A DNA stretch of 64,000 nucleotides from NCBI GenBank assembly GCA_963674785.1, contig OY771555.1:1088001-1152000 (forward strand), read 5' to 3'. The stretch is from Caldisericia bacterium. GTDB lineage: Bacteria; Caldisericota; Caldisericia; JAAYUI01. The position numbers and the translations under genes were made by a program. Positions 22,527-30,037 of this stretch are shown here, in pieces; within the stretch, counting starts at the first letter, position 1, and each line of letters starts with the position of its first letter. Below the pieces are notes generated by a model. That model had not been told where the DNA came from, ran no database searches, and saw only the letters and a list, made by a program, of their open reading frames with translations.

Positions 22527-24806
22527 TCACTTTCCAATCATCGCAAGGAATGAATCAATCCTGAGTCTGAGTTGTCCAGTATCAGATGGTGAATAGTCAG
22601 TTTCGATTTTGAGGAATGGAAGGTTGTGTTTTTCCTGGATGTGTTTTTTGAGAAGCTCTGATTCAATATTGTAGGTGTGGCATGCTTGCCATATAAGGTC
22701 AACAATTCCGTCTGGTTTGTGTTTTTCAATCATCTGGTCAAGTAGATCGAATCTTCCCTGGTTTGGCATCATGACAGAGCATGGGAGCTTGAAGTATTTT
22801 CTGGCGAGATTTTCAAAAAGATCACCTTCTGTTGAAATGTTATCAACAAGTGGTTTGATTCCGGTGCAGTTTTCCTGAACACAGACAACAGCTCCCGCCT
22901 CTTCGATGATGTCTAAAACTTTTTCGGCACCATGGGGTTGTGGTACACCGGTCATCAGAATCTTTGGTTTGTGAGCATGTTTTGGATTTTCTTTTTCGGC
23001 CTCAGAGATTATATCTTCATACGCCTTGTGGTCACATGGGATTCCAGAGATGAGACTTTTTGCATCAAGCACCTCTTTGCCTGTAAGCACTGTTCCGCCA
23101 AACTCAGATATTTTTAATCGAAGTTCTCTTTCTTTGTTCATGAGATTGATTGCAGAAAGCAACCTCTCATTTGTCATTTTGTTTCCAGTGAGTTCTTCGA
23201 GTTTTTTTACTAGCAATTTGATTTCAGTAAACCAGTGCTGGAAAGCTGATTCCTCATCTGGTTTCTGGGTGAGTTCAAGGATGTGCATTGGTTTGTCTTT
23301 TGAAAGCAGTTCATACATCTTCTTTTTGCCATCACATGTTGTTTCAGCGATAACAAGGTCTGACATCTCGAATATTGGGTTTGCTTTTTCAAGAGCAAAT
23401 CCATATGAAGATTTGATGAGTGGGCAGAGGTTTGATGGCAAATCTTTTTCCGATGCAGTTGCCATATTATGGCTTCCACCACAGGCACAAACAGGGACAG
23501 CACCAACAGCCATGATGAGTTCCCTTGGAGTATATTCACAAAACATCGAAACAACTTTTTTACCCATATTTTTCATCATCTGAGCTGTATCGATGCAGTT
23601 GCTTACCATTCGGTCAAAGTGACCCAGAGCTGGAACGGAGTGGGTTATGTTTGAGCCACTACTATCACAACATGAAGTTTTTGGCTCTTCCTCTCCACAG
23701 CAAGATGATGGTTCAGATTCCGAATTACAGCATGGTGAAGGAGATGATGCTGTTTCAGCACAACATGGAGATGGAGCTGGTTCATCACAGCAGGCAGACT
23801 TTTGCTCTTCTGATTCGCAACAAGAAGAAGCGGGTTTCCATTCGCAGCATGGGTTTTTATTCTCATTGCTTTCACAGCAAACATCCTTTATTGGTTTTGA
23901 GTCACTGCAGCAACACTCATCTTTTTTGGTATTATCTTCATTGCAACATTTATCAATGTTCATCTCTTCACACTCCTTGTGGCAGGTTATATCTGTGTTC
24001 AGCTCTCCAGGCATAATCTTTATCCCCATCTGTTTGGCAGAAATCAGTGCTGCCCCAAGTGCGCCGGTAACTCTTGGATCAATAGGGATAATAAGTCTTT
24101 CCTTCAGTTCATTGCCTAAGAAAATCCTCATAGCATTATTGAGGGCGACTCCTCCGGTAAATGCAATTGGTGCGGTTATGTTCCCACGCATTATCATGCT
24201 TGCAATTCTTCTTGCTATGGCAACATGAATTCCTGCTGCAATATCTTCTCTGGGAGTGTCTTTTGCTAGAAGTCCAATCACTTCGCTTTCTGCAAAGACC
24301 ACACACATTGAGCTTATTTCTGTTTGATTGCCCGTATTCATTGCAAGTTCTGAGATACCATGAGAATCTGTCTCAAGTATTTTTGAAACGACTTCAAAAA
24401 ATCTACCAGTACCTGCTGCACACCTATCGTTCATGATAAAATCTTTTATTTGACCATGATCATCAAGAAATATTGCTTTTGAATCCTGTCCTCCTATATC
24501 AATGATTGTTCTTACATCGGGGATGAGTGTTTTTACACCCAATGCGTGACATGTGATTTCTGTTGCAATCTTATCACTGAAATCAGGTGAATATCTCCCG
24601 TAGCCGGTTGTTGTTACGAATCCAACATCGCATTTTGTGATTCTGGCTTTCTCAAGAAGGTCAGAGTAAATTGATTCAGCAACACATTTTGGATTTGTTC
24701 CAGCGTCTGCAAAACTTCTTGCAACCAATTTTTTTTTCGAGGTATCAATTAAAGCTCCCTTTACAGCACGGCTTCCAAGGTCAATGCCTACCACAAAATT
24801 TTTCAT
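22527..24806 (-). CDS. Fusion: HgdC/BadF-type ASKHA ATPase activator + Cys-rich linker + double-cubane-cluster/YjiM-like 2-hydroxyacyl-CoA dehydratase family reductase
   Basis: N-terminal GIDLGS, TTGYGR, EITCH, DIGGQDSK, MNDRCAAGTGRF, SSMCVVFAESE; C-terminal FCEYTP, LCPLIKSSYG, ETTCDGKKKMYE, ENCTG, QACHTYNIE, ETDYS. Confidence 0.9.
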   Translation of the reverse strand: MKNFVVGIDLGSRAVKGALIDTSKKKLVARSFADAGTNPKCVAESIYSDLLEKARITKCDVGFVTTTGYGRYSPDFSDKIATEITCHALGVKTLIPDVRTIIDIGGQDSKAIFLDDHGQIKDFIMNDRCAAGTGRFFEVVSKILETDSHGISELAMNTGNQTEISSMCVVFAESEVIGLLAKDTPREDIAAGIHVAIARRIASMIMRGNITAPIAFTGGVALNNAMRIFLGNELKERLIIPIDPRVTGALGAALISAKQMGIKIMPGELNTDITCHKECEEMNIDKCCNEDNTKKDECCCSDSKPIKDVCCESNENKNPCCEWKPASSCCESEEQKSACCDEPAPSPCCAETASSPSPCCNSESEPSSCCGEEEPKTSCCDSSGSNITHSVPALGHFDRMVSNCIDTAQMMKNMGKKVVSMFCEYTPRELIMAVGAVPVCACGGSHNMATASEKDLPSNLCPLIKSSYGFALEKANPIFEMSDLVIAETTCDGKKKMYELLSKDKPMHILELTQKPDEESAFQHWFTEIKLLVKKLEELTGNKMTNERLLSAINLMNKERELRLKISEFGGTVLTGKEVLDAKSLISGIPCDHKAYEDIISEAEKENPKHAHKPKILMTGVPQPHGAEKVLDIIEEAGAVVCVQENCTGIKPLVDNISTEGDLFENLARKYFKLPCSVMMPNQGRFDLLDQMIEKHKPDGIVDLIWQACHTYNIESELLKKHIQEKHNLPFLKIETDYSPSDTGQLRLRIDSFLAMIGK

Positions 24807-26236
24807 TTCTCTCTCCTTGCTTTTATTATCTCGATGAATGCTGAAATTCTTGTCGATAGTTGCCCTAAACTTGAATCAGCAAGTGGGGGGATGGTGATAT
24901 TTAATACCGGAATATCAAATCTTTTTTGCACTTCTTCCCTTATGACGTGACCTTCAGTTGCACAGTGAGATGCACCCGGAATATCACTTATCAATACTCC
25001 CTCAGAACCGTATTTCTCTATCTCATCACATATGAGTTTTGCACGGTATCTTGAGCTTCCAATCATTGGGTCACAAAGTGCTATCATTGCCAGAGCTTTT
25101 GTTGGTCGGGTATCCTCTGGGATTTGTGTTAGAGAATGACTAAAAAGATATTCAGAGCCAGCAACTCTTCCACCCAAGTCTTCAAAAATATTCATGATTC
25201 TAAGGTCTGCAACCGGATTTACCCAGAGAGTTTTTGCGTTTTCTGCGGGAAGAACCCCGATATTGTTATCTACCCGGTCTGCAACCATCTGTTCAACAAA
25301 CTCAATTACATCTATTCCCTCTTCCAAGTCAGAGCAGTAGTGGAGGGCAAACATCTCACAGATTTGAGCTTCAAGTGAGGGTAAGGGAGCGGGTGATATT
25401 CCGTATGTCATGTCTCTGATGTTTGCCAGAGATTTCCTGAGTCTGTTTGCATTTTTGATGCTTTCAGTCAACATTAAATCCGTGATTTCTAAATCCAAAT
25501 GGTTTTTGATTTCTTGGATAATTGTTTTGAATTGTTCTTCTACAAAGTCGATCAGATGGTTTTCTATTCTTATTCCAGTTGGAAGCTCAGTTGTGTTGAC
25601 CTTTGAATTTGTTTCCCTTCTGTATGGCAATTCCCACCACGACAACTTCACATCAGTTCTGCTGATTCTGGACATCACGGTAGAAAAATCGTCACAGCAT
25701 GAACCAACCGCACCAATTAAAAGCTCAGGCATCGGGAAATGAGCACGATTCAAGAAAGCAGATAATGCAACCCTTGCGGGACAATACTCCTCACCAAGTC
25801 CCGCACCATCTGCAATCTTTAGAAGACCTGCATTCATCTCCATTACGCAAGGAATCCACCATGCGCCATCTGGATAGAATGAAATGATTTCAGGGTGGGC
25901 ATATGCGATGATTGGGATTGTTCCCAAGTCCTTCATTGCCCCGATAATTTTCTTGCCAGCTTTTCTTGATTTGTGAAGTCTCTGCTCTTCAGAAAGTAGC
26001 ATTGACCATAATCTTATTGATGCAAGTGAATTATCAAATTTCAGACTTGCAAGTCTTGTGTCTCCCTCAAGTTCCGAAAAACATGCTGGACTTGCCATGT
26101 ATGAGTATTCCTCGGAAGTTCCAGTCAGGGCGGTGAATCCCTTTTTTATCTTATCTGGAATCTCTCTATGAATTCGGTTGAACTCATTCAAGTCGACTTT
26201 TTCTGGGTGTTTGTCTTTATAATTTTTATATGTCAT
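24803..26236 (-). CDS. 2-hydroxyacyl-CoA dehydratase (HgdA/B, BcrB/C-like) family protein
   Basis: GKKIIG, YCPAR, GSCCDDFS, SHCATEG, GQLSTRISAFIE; ATGA overlaps with both neighbours. Confidence 0.8.
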   Translation of the reverse strand: MTYKNYKDKHPEKVDLNEFNRIHREIPDKIKKGFTALTGTSEEYSYMASPACFSELEGDTRLASLKFDNSLASIRLWSMLLSEEQRLHKSRKAGKKIIGAMKDLGTIPIIAYAHPEIISFYPDGAWWIPCVMEMNAGLLKIADGAGLGEEYCPARVALSAFLNRAHFPMPELLIGAVGSCCDDFSTVMSRISRTDVKLSWWELPYRRETNSKVNTTELPTGIRIENHLIDFVEEQFKTIIQEIKNHLDLEITDLMLTESIKNANRLRKSLANIRDMTYGISPAPLPSLEAQICEMFALHYCSDLEEGIDVIEFVEQMVADRVDNNIGVLPAENAKTLWVNPVADLRIMNIFEDLGGRVAGSEYLFSHSLTQIPEDTRPTKALAMIALCDPMIGSSRYRAKLICDEIEKYGSEGVLISDIPGASHCATEGHVIREEVQKRFDIPVLNITIPPLADSSLGQLSTRISAFIEIIKARREK

Positions 26237-27198
26237 AGATTTTCTAAAAATGCTTCTATTCGAGTTTTTATTCGATGTGAACCAATGTCTGAGTATGAAT
26301 AATCGAGTCCAAGAACTGGTGCTTTAAGCAGTTCTTTCGCTGTTTTTATCTCTGAATTCCAGAGATCACAACCGCGAAGTGTTTTCCAAATAACACCATC
26401 AATTTCTAAATCAGTTATTTTTTTGTTCATCCATGAGAAGAAATCATCATTTGGTCTTGCCCTGATACATGGAGTCTGATTGAAATATGCTGATGCAGCT
26501 GCTTCAAATGGGTCGATATTTGCATCAATCTCTATTTCTAAAAATCTATCTCCCGTGCATGTTGCATCAAACACAATTTCCGCTGGGAACTTTTCAATTT
26601 CACAAAGCAACTTGATTTCTTCTTTTGCTGTTGGAGACCCTGCAATGGCAATCCTCGGCAATATTTTCTTTCGTTGGGTTGTTTTTATTTCTGGGATTTC
26701 CAAGTTTTGAAAAACTGAATGAACTAAGGAAACAAAATCAGAATCTGATAAACTAGGTCTTTGTTTTCGAATCTCTTTTCTGAGTTTGTTGCTTTTTTCA
26801 ATTTCTTTACTCAATAAATTCTTATCAAACTTTTTTCCTGATAAATCTTCAAGTTTCTCAGTCAGAACCGATAGTTCTGACTTAAATAATTCAAAAGTAC
26901 CTTTGTTTCTGGTTGCAGGCATATGTGATACAAAACTTTTGCAACTACCTGAAACATCCAGTGTATCTAAAGTCCTAGACATCTGATCACATGTACAACT
27001 TCCAAAATGAAATACATCCTTATTTTTCTTTTCGCCAATTAATGACTTGCACCAGGAGCAAATCCCAGGGTGTAGTTCACCATTTGACTCATCAGAGATT
27101 TTTCCCGATGATACAAATCTTTTTGGCATAAAACCAAAACTTTTTATGAGCTCAATCGGAATGAATGAACAATGGATCAAGATATCTAGGTTATTCAT
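26233..27198 (-). CDS. 2-hydroxyacyl-CoA dehydratase family protein
   Basis: CSFIPIELI, ICSWCKS, TCDQMSR, DATCTGDR, PCIR, GCDLW, TRIEAFLE. Confidence 0.85.
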   Translation of the reverse strand: MNNLDILIHCSFIPIELIKSFGFMPKRFVSSGKISDESNGELHPGICSWCKSLIGEKKNKDVFHFGSCTCDQMSRTLDTLDVSGSCKSFVSHMPATRNKGTFELFKSELSVLTEKLEDLSGKKFDKNLLSKEIEKSNKLRKEIRKQRPSLSDSDFVSLVHSVFQNLEIPEIKTTQRKKILPRIAIAGSPTAKEEIKLLCEIEKFPAEIVFDATCTGDRFLEIEIDANIDPFEAAASAYFNQTPCIRARPNDDFFSWMNKKITDLEIDGVIWKTLRGCDLWNSEIKTAKELLKAPVLGLDYSYSDIGSHRIKTRIEAFLENL

Positions 27199-27205
27199 AT
27201 CTGTT

Positions 27206-28000
27206 TTATTTTTTTATTGCGATGAATCTTCCTCTTGTCATCTTGTTTGCGTGGGCAAGTTCACTCATGTTCATCATTTCTCCGCCCATTGCCTGGAATA
27301 ATTCCATGTCGTTACCAATAATTCTGAGAGCATCTGATGTGAGTTGTTTTGTGAGCATCTGGATGTAAAGGTCAACATACTCTGCAAAATCAATCTGGTT
27401 TGCTTCCTTTATCTCGAATCCGTTTTCCTCAAGGAGCTTTTTGTATCCCGAAATTGATTCCATGTATGGGAATTTCATGAAGGTATTGACTCTATCGGCT
27501 TCGTCATCTGTCATTCCAGCGGGTCCCTCAACCCAATCTGTAAATGCTATGGTGCCACCTGGTTTTAAAACTCTTGCAGCCTCTGAGATGAGCCTTTCTT
27601 TGTCTTCGACATAACACCAAGCATCCTCACCCCAGACAAAATCAAATTTTTCGTCTTCAATTGGGATGTCAGTGACGTCACCCTTTACAAAATTGACTTT
27701 ATCAGCAAGTCCTCTTGCTTCATTTCTTGCTTTGCCTGTTTCGATAACCTTGTCTGTTGCATCAACACCTGTCATCTCGGTTTTAAAGTTTTCGGCTAAA
27801 AATCTCATTCCTGCACCATTGCAGCAGCAAAGATCACAACCATGCATACCTTCTTTGATTCCCGCATTTTTTGCAAGTTCCATGCTTGAATTCATTCCAC
27901 CAACATGGATCTGTTCACCCATGATGAGTTCCCATAAAGTTCCTTCTGCACCACTGTAAACTGCCTGAACATCACTTAGTTTTTTGTCTGTCCTTTTCAT
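27206..28000 (-). CDS. Class I SAM-dependent methyltransferase with a Cys-rich motif I (likely start MKRTDKK at 28000; the ORF track extends to 28042)
   Basis: IHVGG, CDLCCCNGAG, FDFVWGEDAWCYV, EAARVLKPGG; RBS GAAAGG upstream of ATG 28000. Confidence 0.85.
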   Translation of the reverse strand: MKRTDKKLSDVQAVYSGAEGTLWELIMGEQIHVGGMNSSMELAKNAGIKEGMHGCDLCCCNGAGMRFLAENFKTEMTGVDATDKVIETGKARNEARGLADKVNFVKGDVTDIPIEDEKFDFVWGEDAWCYVEDKERLISEAARVLKPGGTIAFTDWVEGPAGMTDDEADRVNTFMKFPYMESISGYKKLLEENGFEIKEANQIDFAEYVDLYIQMLTKQLTSDALRIIGNDMELFQAMGGEMMNMSELAHANKMTRGRFIAIKK

Positions 28001-28111
28001 GACACTACCAACCTTTCGTTTGGAAATATTGCATGACAACAAATATTAATTGGATTTCTTGTCGTCATGGTCTCCCGTGACCAGTTGGTAGACTGCAACA
28101 GATGAGATTAA

Positions 28112-28201
28112 CTAGAAAGATATACCCAATGGAAACGGGTTTTGACCAATATTTTTCTGAAGTCGAACCGACTTCAAATCTTCGAATCAAACACAATTCA
28201 T
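28112..28201 (-). CDS. Putative 29-aa leader selenopeptide MNCV(U)FEDLKSVRLQKNIGQNPFPLGISF, or a 4-aa uORF if UGA stops
   Basis: SD GGAAAGGGGTG before ATG 28201; TGA at 28187-28189; SECIS-like hairpin 10 nt downstream; TAG at 28112-28114. Confidence 0.45.
28158..28176 (-). promoter_or_regulatory. Bacterial SECIS-like hairpin
   Basis: UGAAGUCG-GUU-CGACUUCA: perfect 8-bp stem, loop starting with G about 19 nt after the UGA. Confidence 0.45.
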
Positions 28202-28247
28202 CAAAGAACCACCCCTTTCCACTGATATGTTCAAAATATCCGACGTG

Positions 28248-28271
28248 TTGGACTATTTTTCAATAGTCCAA
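28248..28271. promoter_or_regulatory. Perfect 10-bp inverted repeat overlapping a putative -35 box (operator)
   Basis: TTGGACTATT-TTTC-AATAGTCCAA; the minus strand reads TTGAAA-17 nt-GATATT through it. Confidence 0.45.
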
Positions 28272-28306
28272 TTGTGTCGAAATTTTATTATTTTTGTTTT
28301 ATGTGT

Positions 28307-30037
28307 TTATGGGTAATATGTCACACCAATATATTTAGCACAGATGAGAACATCTTCTAGTGTCACTTCTCCGTCTTCATTTACATCGAATCGACTGTCT
28401 TTTTCATCACGATCCAATGATTCAAAGATTTTCTCAATGTCTGCTGAATCAATTTTTCCATCATAGTTTGTATCGATTTGCGCAATTACGTTTTCCAACA
28501 TAATTACCTTTGAAAACTTGTCACCCTCATACTCAAAATATATGGCGATTGGAATATCCCTGCATTTGAAATTATCATCTGGGATTCTTAAATTTGCAAA
28601 GAAAGAGTATTTTTCTCCTGGAGGAAGAGTAATCTCATCTGCGAGGTAATCGCTACTGACTTTTAACTCCCGGTCAAGTGGGTTTTCGATTTCAATTCTT
28701 ACTTTTCTGTCATGAAGAAAGCCAGCTTTGACCATATCAGGAGCAGTTATTTCAATATGTTCCCTTGGTTCAATTGTTATTCTAACATTTACTCCAGAGC
28801 TGTCTTCTGATATAACCTCAACCGTTATGTTCTCTGTGTTATCACCAAACTTTGCGTTTGTGCTTGGGTTTGTTTCTGGACTGATTATTGAAATACCATC
28901 AGAAGTGTAGCAGGGGTTTGTATGCCATACATCATCTCGGGGGTTGAAAAGAATTGCATATTGCTCTCCGGTGTCGTCCCAATCGGTATTATTCCAATAA
29001 TTTGTTCTTTCATTTATTCTGTATGCAATTAATCCCTCTGATGGAATCCCACCCCAAAATGCGTCTATTCCATCTTTTATTCGGTATTCAAGAGCTAAAA
29101 TCTCTTTTGTTCCAGCAATTGGTATTTTTACATAGGCATCTTTTTCGTTTGTGATGACAGGAGGAATCTTGATTTCATGAACTCCAACTCCCGTTACTTC
29201 TGTTGGTTCGAGCCACCCGAATTTTTCTCTATGAAGACCTGTAAGACCCAGTCCACCATGCCTTGCTACCATAATATCATAGTATGTGAATGGATATGTA
29301 CAGTTGCCCATAGATGGCCCACCACAATGATAATCATAGAGGTCAGCAAGCCCTAAAACATGACCGACTTCATGAGTGGAAACCAATGCTCCGTCGCCGT
29401 AAAAACTCATGTCTTCTGTGACAAGAACCATATCAATCATGATGACCCTATCGTCACCTTCTTTTGAGTGTCTTATCTTTCCGCGACATGGCCAGAAAGC
29501 GTCATCTCTCGGATAATTTGTATATCCTTCTGCTGGACCTGCGACCACAACAACGATCACAAGGTCATTTAAAAACCAAAAATGATTATATCCTGGGTAT
29601 GAAAACCCATTCTCATAATCAATTTCAAGACCATCAGAAATTGCTTTTTCCAGAGCCCAGTTGAGGACTTCATTCCTTCGGATATCGAAATCTTCTTCAG
29701 TATCTTTCGCGTAATATCTTAGCTCCTTTGGGGCTCTGTACCACCCATTTGGCACAAAATCACCAGGTAAAATCTCCTGCTTTCCTGAAGAGGCGAGATT
29801 CCAAAACGTTCGAACAGTTTCACCCTCAACACTAAAGAATTCATCGCTGATCTCAGAATAATCTCTCATATGTGGTTGATCTGAAAAATCGACTGTCAAC
29901 AATGTGAGTTTACATTCGTCAACTTCTTCAGAGTTTGCTAATGTTCCTGGGTAAGCCAACCCGAGAGCCATGAAAAGTACTACAAAAACAATTATTGATT
30001 TTCTAATTTTCCCCATATTTGAAATGATATGTCCCAA
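28307..30037 (-). CDS. Secreted M6 (immune inhibitor A-like) zinc metalloprotease with C-terminal dockerin-like domain
   Basis: LLTVDFSD, HEVGHVLGLADLYD, YDIM, FGWLEP, EYRIKDGID; tandem DTNYDGKIDSAD / DVNEDGEVTLED EF-hand-like repeats. Confidence 0.85.
   Translation of the reverse strand: MGHIISNMGKIRKSIIVFVVLFMALGLAYPGTLANSEEVDECKLTLLTVDFSDQPHMRDYSEISDEFFSVEGETVRTFWNLASSGKQEILPGDFVPNGWYRAPKELRYYAKDTEEDFDIRRNEVLNWALEKAISDGLEIDYENGFSYPGYNHFWFLNDLVIVVVVAGPAEGYTNYPRDDAFWPCRGKIRHSKEGDDRVIMIDMVLVTEDMSFYGDGALVSTHEVGHVLGLADLYDYHCGGPSMGNCTYPFTYYDIMVARHGGLGLTGLHREKFGWLEPTEVTGVGVHEIKIPPVITNEKDAYVKIPIAGTKEILALEYRIKDGIDAFWGGIPSEGLIAYRINERTNYWNNTDWDDTGEQYAILFNPRDDVWHTNPCYTSDGISIISPETNPSTNAKFGDNTENITVEVISEDSSGVNVRITIEPREHIEITAPDMVKAGFLHDRKVRIEIENPLDRELKVSSDYLADEITLPPGEKYSFFANLRIPDDNFKCRDIPIAIYFEYEGDKFSKVIMLENVIAQIDTNYDGKIDSADIEKIFESLDRDEKDSRFDVNEDGEVTLEDVLICAKYIGVTYYP

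Follow-up and report, generated by a model that had tools for sequence, protein, structure and literature searches.

In a 64,000-nucleotide (nt) stretch of the genome of a Caldisericia bacterium (assembly GCA_963674785.1, contig OY771555.1, positions 1,088,001 to 1,152,000; hereafter the window), the spacer between a gene for an M6-type protease with a dockerin (28307-30037) and a gene for a class I methyltransferase (ATG at 28000) carries a very short open reading frame (ORF) that runs into an in-frame UGA and is followed by a hairpin resembling a selenocysteine insertion sequence (SECIS). This leader ORF probably ties the methyltransferase operon to the selenium supply of the cell. It lies on the minus strand, where its Shine-Dalgarno (SD) sequence, GGAAAGGGGTGG (28220-28209), pairs over 8 contiguous positions, one of them G-U, with the 16S rRNA 3' end of the same genome (GGATCACCTCCTTTCT). 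Seven nt separate the SD from the leader ATG (28201-28199), and the ORF reads ATG AAT TGT GTT TGA (M-N-C-V-UGA, 28201-28187), with the TGA (28189-28187) as its fifth codon. Beyond it the frame stays open (28186-28112) for 24 codons, up to a TAG at 28114-28112; with the TGA read as selenocysteine (Sec, U) the product would be MNCVUFEDLKSVRLQKNIGQNPFPLGISF (29 residues). The initial annotation of this DNA had described the SD and the ATG-AAT-TGT-GTT-TGA stretch correctly to the base (28220-28187), and its hairpin 10 nt after the UGA, with an 8-bp stem and a GUU loop (28176-28158), and its open frame to the TAG at 28112 were likewise recovered. No ORF of at least 60 amino acids overlaps 28043-28306 on either strand. 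The initial annotation had likened this SD to those before nrdJ and the 53861 gene; the exact SD 11-mer is unique within the window, where matches with at most two mismatches number 13 and are thereby no commoner than in shuffled sequences (13.7).

The hairpin has the core UGAAGUCG-GUU-CGACUUCA, formed in the DNA by the arms TGAAGTCG (28176-28169) and CGACTTCA (28165-28158) around the loop GTT (28168-28166), after a 10-nt spacer (28186-28177). Two extra pairs lengthen the stem to 10 bp (28178-28156), giving a spacing after the UGA of 8-10 nt. Its folding energy of -11.3 kcal/mol (z -2.48) was equalled by 6 of 200 shuffles, which is moderate alone. In the consensus model of bacterial SECIS elements (bSECIS), as given in passages of PMC13188914, the apical loop has 3-9 nt and the upper stem 4-16 bp (Fig. 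2 legend), a G stands at loop position 1 or 2, usually followed by G or U, and the energy limit is -7.5 kcal/mol. Our hairpin agrees with all four constraints of this model (loop of 3 nt, stem of 8-10 bp, G-U at the start of the loop, spacing and energy), the model test giving a UGA-to-loop distance of 18 nt and an energy of -10.5 kcal/mol.

By itself this single instance is not significant, because the same pattern recurs elsewhere in the genome. A genome-wide scan that required an SD and a start no more than 30 codons before a stop, with a hairpin 5-22 nt beyond the stop, found it at 250 of 112,651 TGA triplets (~0.2%), at 229 of 70,546 TAA and at 99 of 32,137 TAG triplets; within intergenic DNA there were 20 TGA, 17 TAA and 7 TAG matches. 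Since a lone instance is hardly beyond chance, the case depends on comparative evidence.

The 2.23-Mb genome encodes the machinery for Sec insertion. It has selA (533 bits) and selB (317 bits), a tRNA-Sec (69.5 bits, C1:1784782-1784869) lies 64 nt past the end of selB, and selD carries one in-frame TGA (C1:175829, ...FAGCAG-U-ESKWGPG...), SelD thus being itself a selenoprotein; 9 nt after this TGA stands a 7-bp stem with a CGGGA loop. Across the family, selA is present in all 11 genomes and tRNA-Sec in 10 of them. The initial annotation had made its proposal depend on a Sec machinery in the genome, and selA, selB, tRNA-Sec and a Sec-containing selD are all there. Two looser de novo scans for further selenoproteins, using open frames and a hexamer coding score, were too noisy, and a stricter version led to two PQQ-like beta-propeller paralogues outside the window, each with an in-frame TGA (C1:1075718 and C1:1493975) and coding sequence on both sides of it. 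Twelve nt after the propeller TGA follows a stem of 8-10 bp with a GUC loop, which encodes CLSG and occurs only in the repeat after the TGA; both proteins are probably Sec-containing and apparently undescribed. At the position equivalent to Sec, the sister repeats of the propellers have varying residues (W, Y, F, D, S, A). The leader hairpins fall within the range of the propeller and selD SECIS candidates, and from the bSECIS fit and the Sec machinery we would predict that the hairpin at our locus binds SelB and that Sec is inserted at the leader UGA. Elsewhere in intergenic DNA a perfect hairpin, CCCTCCCT-loop-AGGGAGGG, recurs (e.g. C1:584659, 807059, 852113 and 532313); it looks like a dispersed repeat or a terminator family.

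Of the 10 other genomes in the family, 8 have an orthologue of the methyltransferase (62-81% identity); the 73 remaining genomes of the class have none. Seven of these loci, from three genera, have enough upstream DNA for comparison (L030 was left out, its upstream DNA being cut off), and in all seven a strong SD precedes a short ORF that ends in TGA and is followed 8-11 nt later by a hairpin, which has a triloop containing G-U; 19-24 codons stay open past the TGA. The peptides encoded before the TGA differ: MNCV at our locus, MTIYCK in the same genus, MKTLRFCL, MARNKLFCL and MRTLKFCL in the genus that we label g3, and MYSRNVNHRSL in genus g2. The leader sequences are otherwise unalignable between genera, and when 41 related genomes were searched at the DNA level with a 310-nt leader query, only our own copy was found. 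Within our genus, the orthologous hairpin, GGGAUCG-GUU-CGAUUCC, keeps the GGUUCG centre and differs from ours by two compensatory changes of stem pairs (G-C to A-U and A-U to G-C). The first stop is TGA in all eight Caldisericia methyltransferase leaders, compared with 28% of long ORFs genome-wide. A MAFFT/RNAalifold consensus, attempted on the folded leader regions (D1, below) of eight Caldisericia loci and on our locus with its same-genus orthologue L024, misaligned the leaders and yielded consensus structures without meaning; it was discarded, and per-sequence folds, cross-locus duplex permutations and within-genus alignments were used in its place.

One other element of the same make emerged from the genome-wide scan, outside the window (C1:172853-172967). 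This second leader reads GAAGGAG-6 nt-ATG ACA ACT TAC AGA TCG CTT TGA (MTTYRSL-UGA), followed 9 nt after the TGA by an 8-bp stem, GGCAGAUG-GUU-CAUCUGCC. It heads an operon for a NitT/TauT-type ATP-binding cassette (ABC) transporter, with selD directly after the transporter genes; the binding protein, permease and ATPase have SaoX, SaoP and SaoA as their best or near-best NCBIfam matches, all below cut-off. All four genomes of the genus that have the transporter keep the leader, each time with ...(R/G)-S-L-UGA and exactly 21 codons past the UGA. Among these four sequences, the upper stem of the SECIS-like hairpin shows compensatory changes in 5 of its 8 pairs, and through a lower stem the UGA comes to lie in an internal loop. 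The strand pairing with the transporter gene's SD contains the distal stop, and in a model a ribosome placed at this stop raises the accessibility of that SD from 0.22 to 0.53. In the alignment 92.5% of cells are paired, versus 30-47% with the partners slid, a comparison that has four sequences only.

Beyond Caldisericia, relatives of the methyltransferase number 537 in the genome_contigs set and 478 in metagenome contigs, of which the best 80 of each were examined; a strict blind scan then covered the 400 nt upstream of the methyltransferase at 74 loci per set. In genome_contigs, our own locus included, the pattern was found with TGA 26 times and with TAA and TAG once each, from 522 TGA, 370 TAA and 171 TAG triplets available, while dinucleotide shuffles of 73 loci gave a mean of 5.05 (sd 2.2, maximum 11). 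The metagenome set yielded 16 TGA, 2 TAA and 1 TAG matches and 5 TGA matches on the reverse complement (shuffles: mean 8.1, sd 3.1, maximum 14). At least 18 codons are open past the TGA in frame 0 of 23 of the 26 blind-scan hits, and in 14 and 10 of them in the other frames. Among the best 80 per set, leaders occur in metagenome-assembled genomes (MAGs) labelled Aminicenantes, Calditrichaeota, KSB1, LCP-89, Verrucomicrobiota, Victivallales/Lentisphaerae, Kiritimatiellae, Planctomycetota and Ca. Kuenenia. An SD-led ORF ending in TGA and followed by a SECIS-like hairpin, whose conservation upstream of orthologous operons the initial annotation had left to be checked, is thus present in three Caldisericia genera and in many phyla.

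From these loci we curated 28 non-redundant leaders with a tiny ORF. Their part before the UGA has 4-17 codons and frame 0 after it 12-37 codons (median 25); frame 0 falls within 18-45 codons in 27 of the 28, the +1 and +2 frames in 8 and 6. All four bSECIS constraints hold in 22 leaders, and a G is found in the first two loop positions in 26. Around the UGA, Cys stands at position -2 in 13 leaders, Leu at -1 in 8, and a G follows the UGA in 18. The general M-x-C-x-U motif of the initial annotation does not hold, Cys at -2 being present in these 13 of 28 only. A small upstream ORF (uORF) with Cys for Sec (an early C-x-C) was found in none of 37 leader-negative loci; nearly all true selenoproteins possess Cys homologues, according to a 2026 review of prokaryotic selenoproteomes.

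At several loci the tiny ORF has a larger counterpart. Directly upstream of the methyltransferase, L091, L100, L106 and L129 (Planctomycetota) and L126 (Kiritimatiellia) encode a predicted membrane-anchored selenoprotein of ~210 amino acids, as do the metagenome loci L152, L153, L200 and L210. Its motif is ...F-x-Y-G-U-G-G-T-C-R-Y-S-W-R-V-P..., the sequence is conserved after Sec, and the gene ends ~110-130 nt before the methyltransferase; its only NCBIfam match is a weak one, to the OS_HP2 (seleno)protein family (E 0.12). The short ORFs of L084, L110 and L113 (...EYG-U...SW...), in which UGA and hairpin are retained, resemble truncated tails of this gene. At L055 and L056, in MAGs labelled Myxococcales and Deltaproteobacteria, another gene directly precedes the methyltransferase, any leader lying further upstream; its 3' end encodes a Cys-rich ...C-x-x-C-R-H-N...H-C-W-G-C-R-A-S-A-Y-H, which presumably recalls a radical-SAM SPASM domain.

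The leader RNA at our locus is strongly structured. Region D1 (28225-28126) folds at -36.2 kcal/mol (z -4.94), a value that none of 200 shuffles reached. In the minimum free energy (MFE) structure it is closed by a 14-bp helix, P1, whose 5' arm (28211-28225) covers the leader's own SD and whose 3' arm (28126-28140) lies inside the read-through ORF; D1 also holds the SECIS-like hairpin and a helix P2 (28179-28207), which pairs the start-codon region (28207-28197) with the UGA region (28190-28179) in the MFE structure and is weaker in the centroid. Pairings of the P1 type recur with differing sequences in many lineages, for instance GGUGAUACAAUG with CAUUGUAUUGCC in Verrucomicrobiota/Lentisphaerae. 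Over the 28 curated leaders, self-pairing averages -17.7 kcal/mol, versus -13.9 kcal/mol across loci, and none of 20,000 permutations was as low; our own P1 (-23.3 kcal/mol) is the best of 28, with a mean of -16.8 kcal/mol when its partner is taken from the 3' regions of the 27 other leaders. Downstream, a long hairpin, D2 (28004-28092, -30.9 kcal/mol, z -3.71, 0 of 200 shuffles equally good), buries the methyltransferase SD and reaches the start codon; its outer helix joins 28091-28083 to 28013-28005 and its inner, 11-bp helix 28069-28059 to 28042-28032. The unpaired probability of the methyltransferase SD window is 0.10. Helices that sequester this SD, of differing sequence, are present in every Caldisericia orthologue, and in the leaders of genus g2 a modelled ribosome at the distal stop lifts SD accessibility from 0.49 to 0.87.

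A terminator-like site overlaps the P1 3' arm (28140-28124, minus strand: ACCCG-UUUCCAU-UGGGU followed by the U-rich AUAUCUUUCU). It is weak, with a 5-bp stem (1 site against 0.1 expected), and none is seen in the leaders of relatives; P1 could act as its antiterminator. We also considered a relay ORF of 23 codons (28068-27997, minus strand, MTTRNPINICCHAIFPNERLVVS), whose TGA overlaps the methyltransferase ATG (ATGA), and rejected it because it is not conserved: it exists at our locus only among the 7 Caldisericia loci, a short ORF in that place in L026 being unrelated and non-equivalent. The inner, 11-bp helix of D2 also hides the start codon of the relay ORF.

As to transcription, a promoter-like site (TTGAAA-17 nt-GATATT, 28235-28263, minus strand), found by consensus scan with 3 sites against 1.4 expected, is a weak hint that the mRNA would start just upstream of the leader. 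In metatranscriptome data, a single contig spans the leader and the methyltransferase and runs into the next gene (26811-28215); it comes from a relative with ~89% identity. At 28215, 14 nt before the leader ATG, it stops beside Illumina adapter letters, weakly suggesting that a 5' end lies here. Its three indels all fall in the spacer (28058, 28092 and 28099) and none in the leader ORF.

The operon headed by the leader starts with an ArsM/UbiE-like class I methyltransferase dependent on S-adenosylmethionine (27206-28000, minus strand), whose best NCBIfam matches are all below cut-off. Its start at ATG 28000 agrees with the orthologues, which align from residue 1. The protein is widespread at ~60% identity, belongs to no curated family and has three invariant Cys (DLCCC...G, and WCYVED). 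Profile matches assign the rest of the operon (22527-27198, minus strand) to two subunits of the HGD-D family (26233-27198 and 24803-26236) and to a fusion of an activase with a double-cubane-cluster reductase (22527-24806). Of the methyltransferase/dehydratase operon in the initial annotation the methyltransferase therefore stands, and the remainder is better described as 2-hydroxyacyl-CoA-dehydratase-like or double-cubane-cluster reductase components plus an activase. The suggestion that the leader encodes a precursor of the kind found in ribosomally synthesized and post-translationally modified peptides (RiPPs) did not hold: the peptide is not conserved, and no RiPP maturase is found among the neighbours (methyltransferase, HGD-D-family proteins, activase-reductase fusion and M6 protease).

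Double-cubane or HGD-D-family genes adjoin the methyltransferase in 51 of 80 genome_contigs loci (the best 80 of 537), and several leader-bearing loci have the methyltransferase alone, which indicates that the leader goes with the methyltransferase. Methyltransferase-bearing genomes are rich in selA: 42 of the 45 genomes behind loci L054-L132 have it, from many phyla and with leaderless loci included, where for comparison a passage of a preprint gives 21.5% of bacteria (PMC10418091). Within the class, selA (11 of 84 genomes) and the methyltransferase (9 of 84) occur only in one and the same family, so that their co-occurrence at this level, in a single clade, counts as one event. In the literature, PMC10418091 calls the dicubane cluster protein "provisionally linked to selenium metabolism", and a STRING table of PMC5322559 places HGD-D-like subunits and activases beside YedE, YedF and SelD.

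Taken together, we consider it highly probable that the element is a selected UGA-SECIS leader, and likely that Sec is inserted at its UGA; the whole reading, a Sec-decoding regulatory leader that reports selenium status to the operon, is the one we lean towards. Ribosomes would load on the strong leader SD. With SelB and Sec-tRNA(Sec) on the hairpin, Sec would be inserted and the ribosome would run 24 codons on, through the P1 3' arm, melting P1 and keeping the leader open and translated. When Sec-tRNA(Sec) is lacking, release factor 2 (RF2) would end translation after four codons; P1 would then close over the leader SD, and the methyltransferase SD would stay buried in D2. That the effect is regulatory, its direction, and the link from read-through to the methyltransferase start at our locus are what we infer from this arrangement. 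The direction is most likely that available selenium switches the operon on: the anti-SD strand contains or adjoins the distal stop in the second leader and in the leaders of genera g2 and g3, which argues for expression when Sec is present.

The other explanations have to be weighed on the same evidence. Pure chance, by which a short ORF and a hairpin would stand in the intergenic spacer without selection, would suit the lone instance, which is insignificant by itself, but it is barely credible for an arrangement kept, despite unrelated sequences, across three genera and many phyla, and the TGA specificity, the preserved frame and the sister leader speak against it as well. An ordinary structured leader, be it a riboswitch or a protein-binding RNA, could contain a four-codon uORF that happens to end in UGA, its likeness to a SECIS being incidental; the strong folding of D1 and D2 would fit, as would the absence of a matching Rfam model and the frequency of the pattern in the genome (250 TGA matches). 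The lineages compared, however, lack aptamer-like conserved nucleotides in junctions and loops, and such a leader gives no reason for the first stop to be TGA in 8 of 8 methyltransferase leaders and 4 of 4 second leaders (TGA ends 28% of long ORFs), for the 26/1/1 distribution of TGA, TAA and TAG, or for selA in 42 of 45 host genomes, so that we judge this explanation very unlikely. Very unlikely, too, is that the hairpin acts as an operator at which SelB, with or without Sec-tRNA, modulates initiation or the fate of the mRNA, the UGA never being decoded; the element before E. coli selAB, reportedly described by Thanbichler and Bock (2002), would be a precedent. SECIS-like hairpins in the 5' leaders of selenium-linked operons would be in keeping with this, and so would P2, which pairs the start codon with the UGA region; yet it leaves unexplained why each UGA is preceded in frame, across 4-17 codons, by an SD-led AUG, why frame 0 and not the other frames is open for 18-45 codons in 27 of 28 leaders, and why the distal stop lies exactly 21 codons on, inside the anti-SD, in all four second leaders.

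The initial annotation had left the choice between a tiny selenopeptide and a leader that senses Sec-tRNA, and the evidence favours the sensor over the functional peptide. A functional selenopeptide of ~29 residues with a Cys-x-Sec centre would serve the methyltransferase and the double-cubane reductase as carrier, substrate or metal/metalloid ligand, regulation being secondary; it could coexist with a sensor. Several observations agree with a peptide role: Cys at -2 is far above background Cys frequency, the frame past the UGA is kept, a ~210-residue membrane-anchored selenoprotein takes the equivalent position in Planctomycetota and Kiritimatiellia, and a table in the 2026 review includes methyltransferase selenoproteins and very short Sec peptides. 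Against this, the peptide is unconserved beyond the UGA context, even between sister genera, and what is kept is RNA helices, frame and read-through length; the 29-residue product has no Pfam or NCBIfam match; the leaders of genus g2 and all four second leaders have S-L-U without Cys; and none of the 37 leader-negative loci has a Cys-for-Sec homologue. The like leader before the unrelated ABC-transporter/selD operon also suits a sensor better than a dedicated cofactor peptide. We thus regard the selenopeptide as the primary function of the leader as unlikely.

A number of points nevertheless weigh against a Sec-decoding regulatory leader. Translation and Sec insertion are predicted from sequence, and the direction of control cannot be read from it, the arrangement in L071 being one that could work oppositely. 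For RNA there is one contig; coming from an RNA library, it may contain DNA, and it shows neither strand nor expression level. Rfam is silent at the leader (no match in the window at gathering score, and for 27900-28450 chance-level matches only, at E up to 10), though it likewise misses the selD SECIS and has no family for the second leader either. P1 is clear in about one third of the leaders and absent in others (e.g. L059, L080 and L082). An anti-SD for the main gene in the spacer beats shuffles (z < -2) in 7 of the 28 curated leaders only, beginning there -10 to +30 nt from the distal stop; at our locus it begins 14 nt past the stop and reaches z -1.9, a value equalled by 10 of 200 shuffles. 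Placing a ribosome at the UGA or the distal stop in the model leaves the accessibility of our methyltransferase SD as it was (0.10 to 0.11), and that of the same-genus orthologue L024 too (0.28 to 0.28), so that the simplest coupling model finds no support at our locus and another link (polarity, mRNA stability or a relay) must be assumed. The metagenome replicate is weaker, ~2.5 sd above shuffles, the 28 curated leaders were partly picked by eye, and the relatives are not independent, the operon having probably moved horizontally along with its leader. Lastly, the Cys at -2 is needless for a pure sensor and hints at a role of the peptide.

The leader can be compared with several known systems. 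It resembles the SECIS elements of bacterial selenoprotein genes of the E. coli fdhF type in its UGA followed by a small hairpin with a G-U loop that agrees with all four bSECIS constraints, but its UGA is codon 5 of a 29-codon leader ORF and not the catalytic residue of an enzyme, and there is no conserved protein; the pairs of Sec and Cys homologues and the conserved protein that mark curated selenoprotein families are not seen for its product. In the mRNA leader of E. coli selAB, Thanbichler and Bock (2002) reportedly described a SECIS-like element that binds SelB without decoding of an in-frame UGA. That element is alike in being a SECIS-type hairpin of a 5' leader that ties selenium genes to Sec decoding, whereas recoding is suggested here by the in-frame UGA of an SD-led ORF and by the preserved distal frame. 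For fdhF(Sec) of Treponema primitia, passages of PMC3892789 report that under scarce selenium the UGA is left undecoded, translation is uncoupled and downstream RNA is lowered, and discuss the SECIS as an attenuator-like structure; that UGA is part of the regulated enzyme gene, ours of a mini-ORF upstream of non-selenoprotein genes. With the trp leader, as presented in the introduction of that paper, our leader shares a short ORF that would sense one charged tRNA and alternative helices involving SDs, and it is akin to the uORF of the Salmonella mgtA region (PMC8092293) and to mycobacterial polycysteine uORFs (10.1101/834739) as a case of leader-ORF control. It differs from leader-peptide attenuators in that recoding would compete with termination at a stop codon, requiring SelB and a SECIS, instead of stalling at sense codons, and from trp-type attenuation in that its one weak terminator-like site is not seen again in the leaders of relatives. 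As in uORF-dependent unmasking, the SD of the main gene is sequestered; opening of its helix by a ribosome is predicted by our models for genus g2 and for the second leader, but not at our own locus.

The protein families that PMC10418091 and PMC5322559 place near selenium genes, in the passages concerned, are those of our operon and occur likewise in Sec-using genomes; these passages mention neither the UGA leader nor the methyltransferase, and a term search of PMC10418091 gave 0 occurrences of "leader", "SECIS" and "upstream". In the 2026 review the term "leader" has 0 occurrences, and a literature search through the main texts of papers found no description of a UGA/SECIS leader. The leader thus combines a SECIS with a regulatory leader ORF and belongs neither to an Rfam family nor to a curated selenoprotein family.

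Known selenium-dependent control acts via the selenoprotein genes themselves or via protein regulators, and we know of no cis-acting selenium sensor in bacteria. To our knowledge, the double-cubane-cluster reductases are enzymes without a known physiological role. It may be, and we hold this for an evenly balanced proposition, that UGA/SECIS mini-ORFs are widespread, undescribed cis-regulators of bacteria that gauge Sec-tRNA(Sec), and thereby selenium, by recoding against termination, switching operons for the methyltransferase and the double-cubane reductase in at least 8 phyla and for the transporter and selD in Caldisericia, some lineages perhaps having derived theirs from an upstream selenoprotein gene trimmed to its UGA-SECIS tail. 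If the Sec-decoding leader is real, it would represent a new logic of attenuation, with recoding against termination in place of stalling, and the leader would serve as a simple reporter of Sec-tRNA availability. It would also mark the genes under its control as selenium-linked, both the methyltransferase with its double-cubane partners and the ABC transporter beside selD. According to the 2026 review, prokaryotes are without an identified transport system that is specific for selenium and of high affinity; such a mark would make the functions of both operons directly testable.

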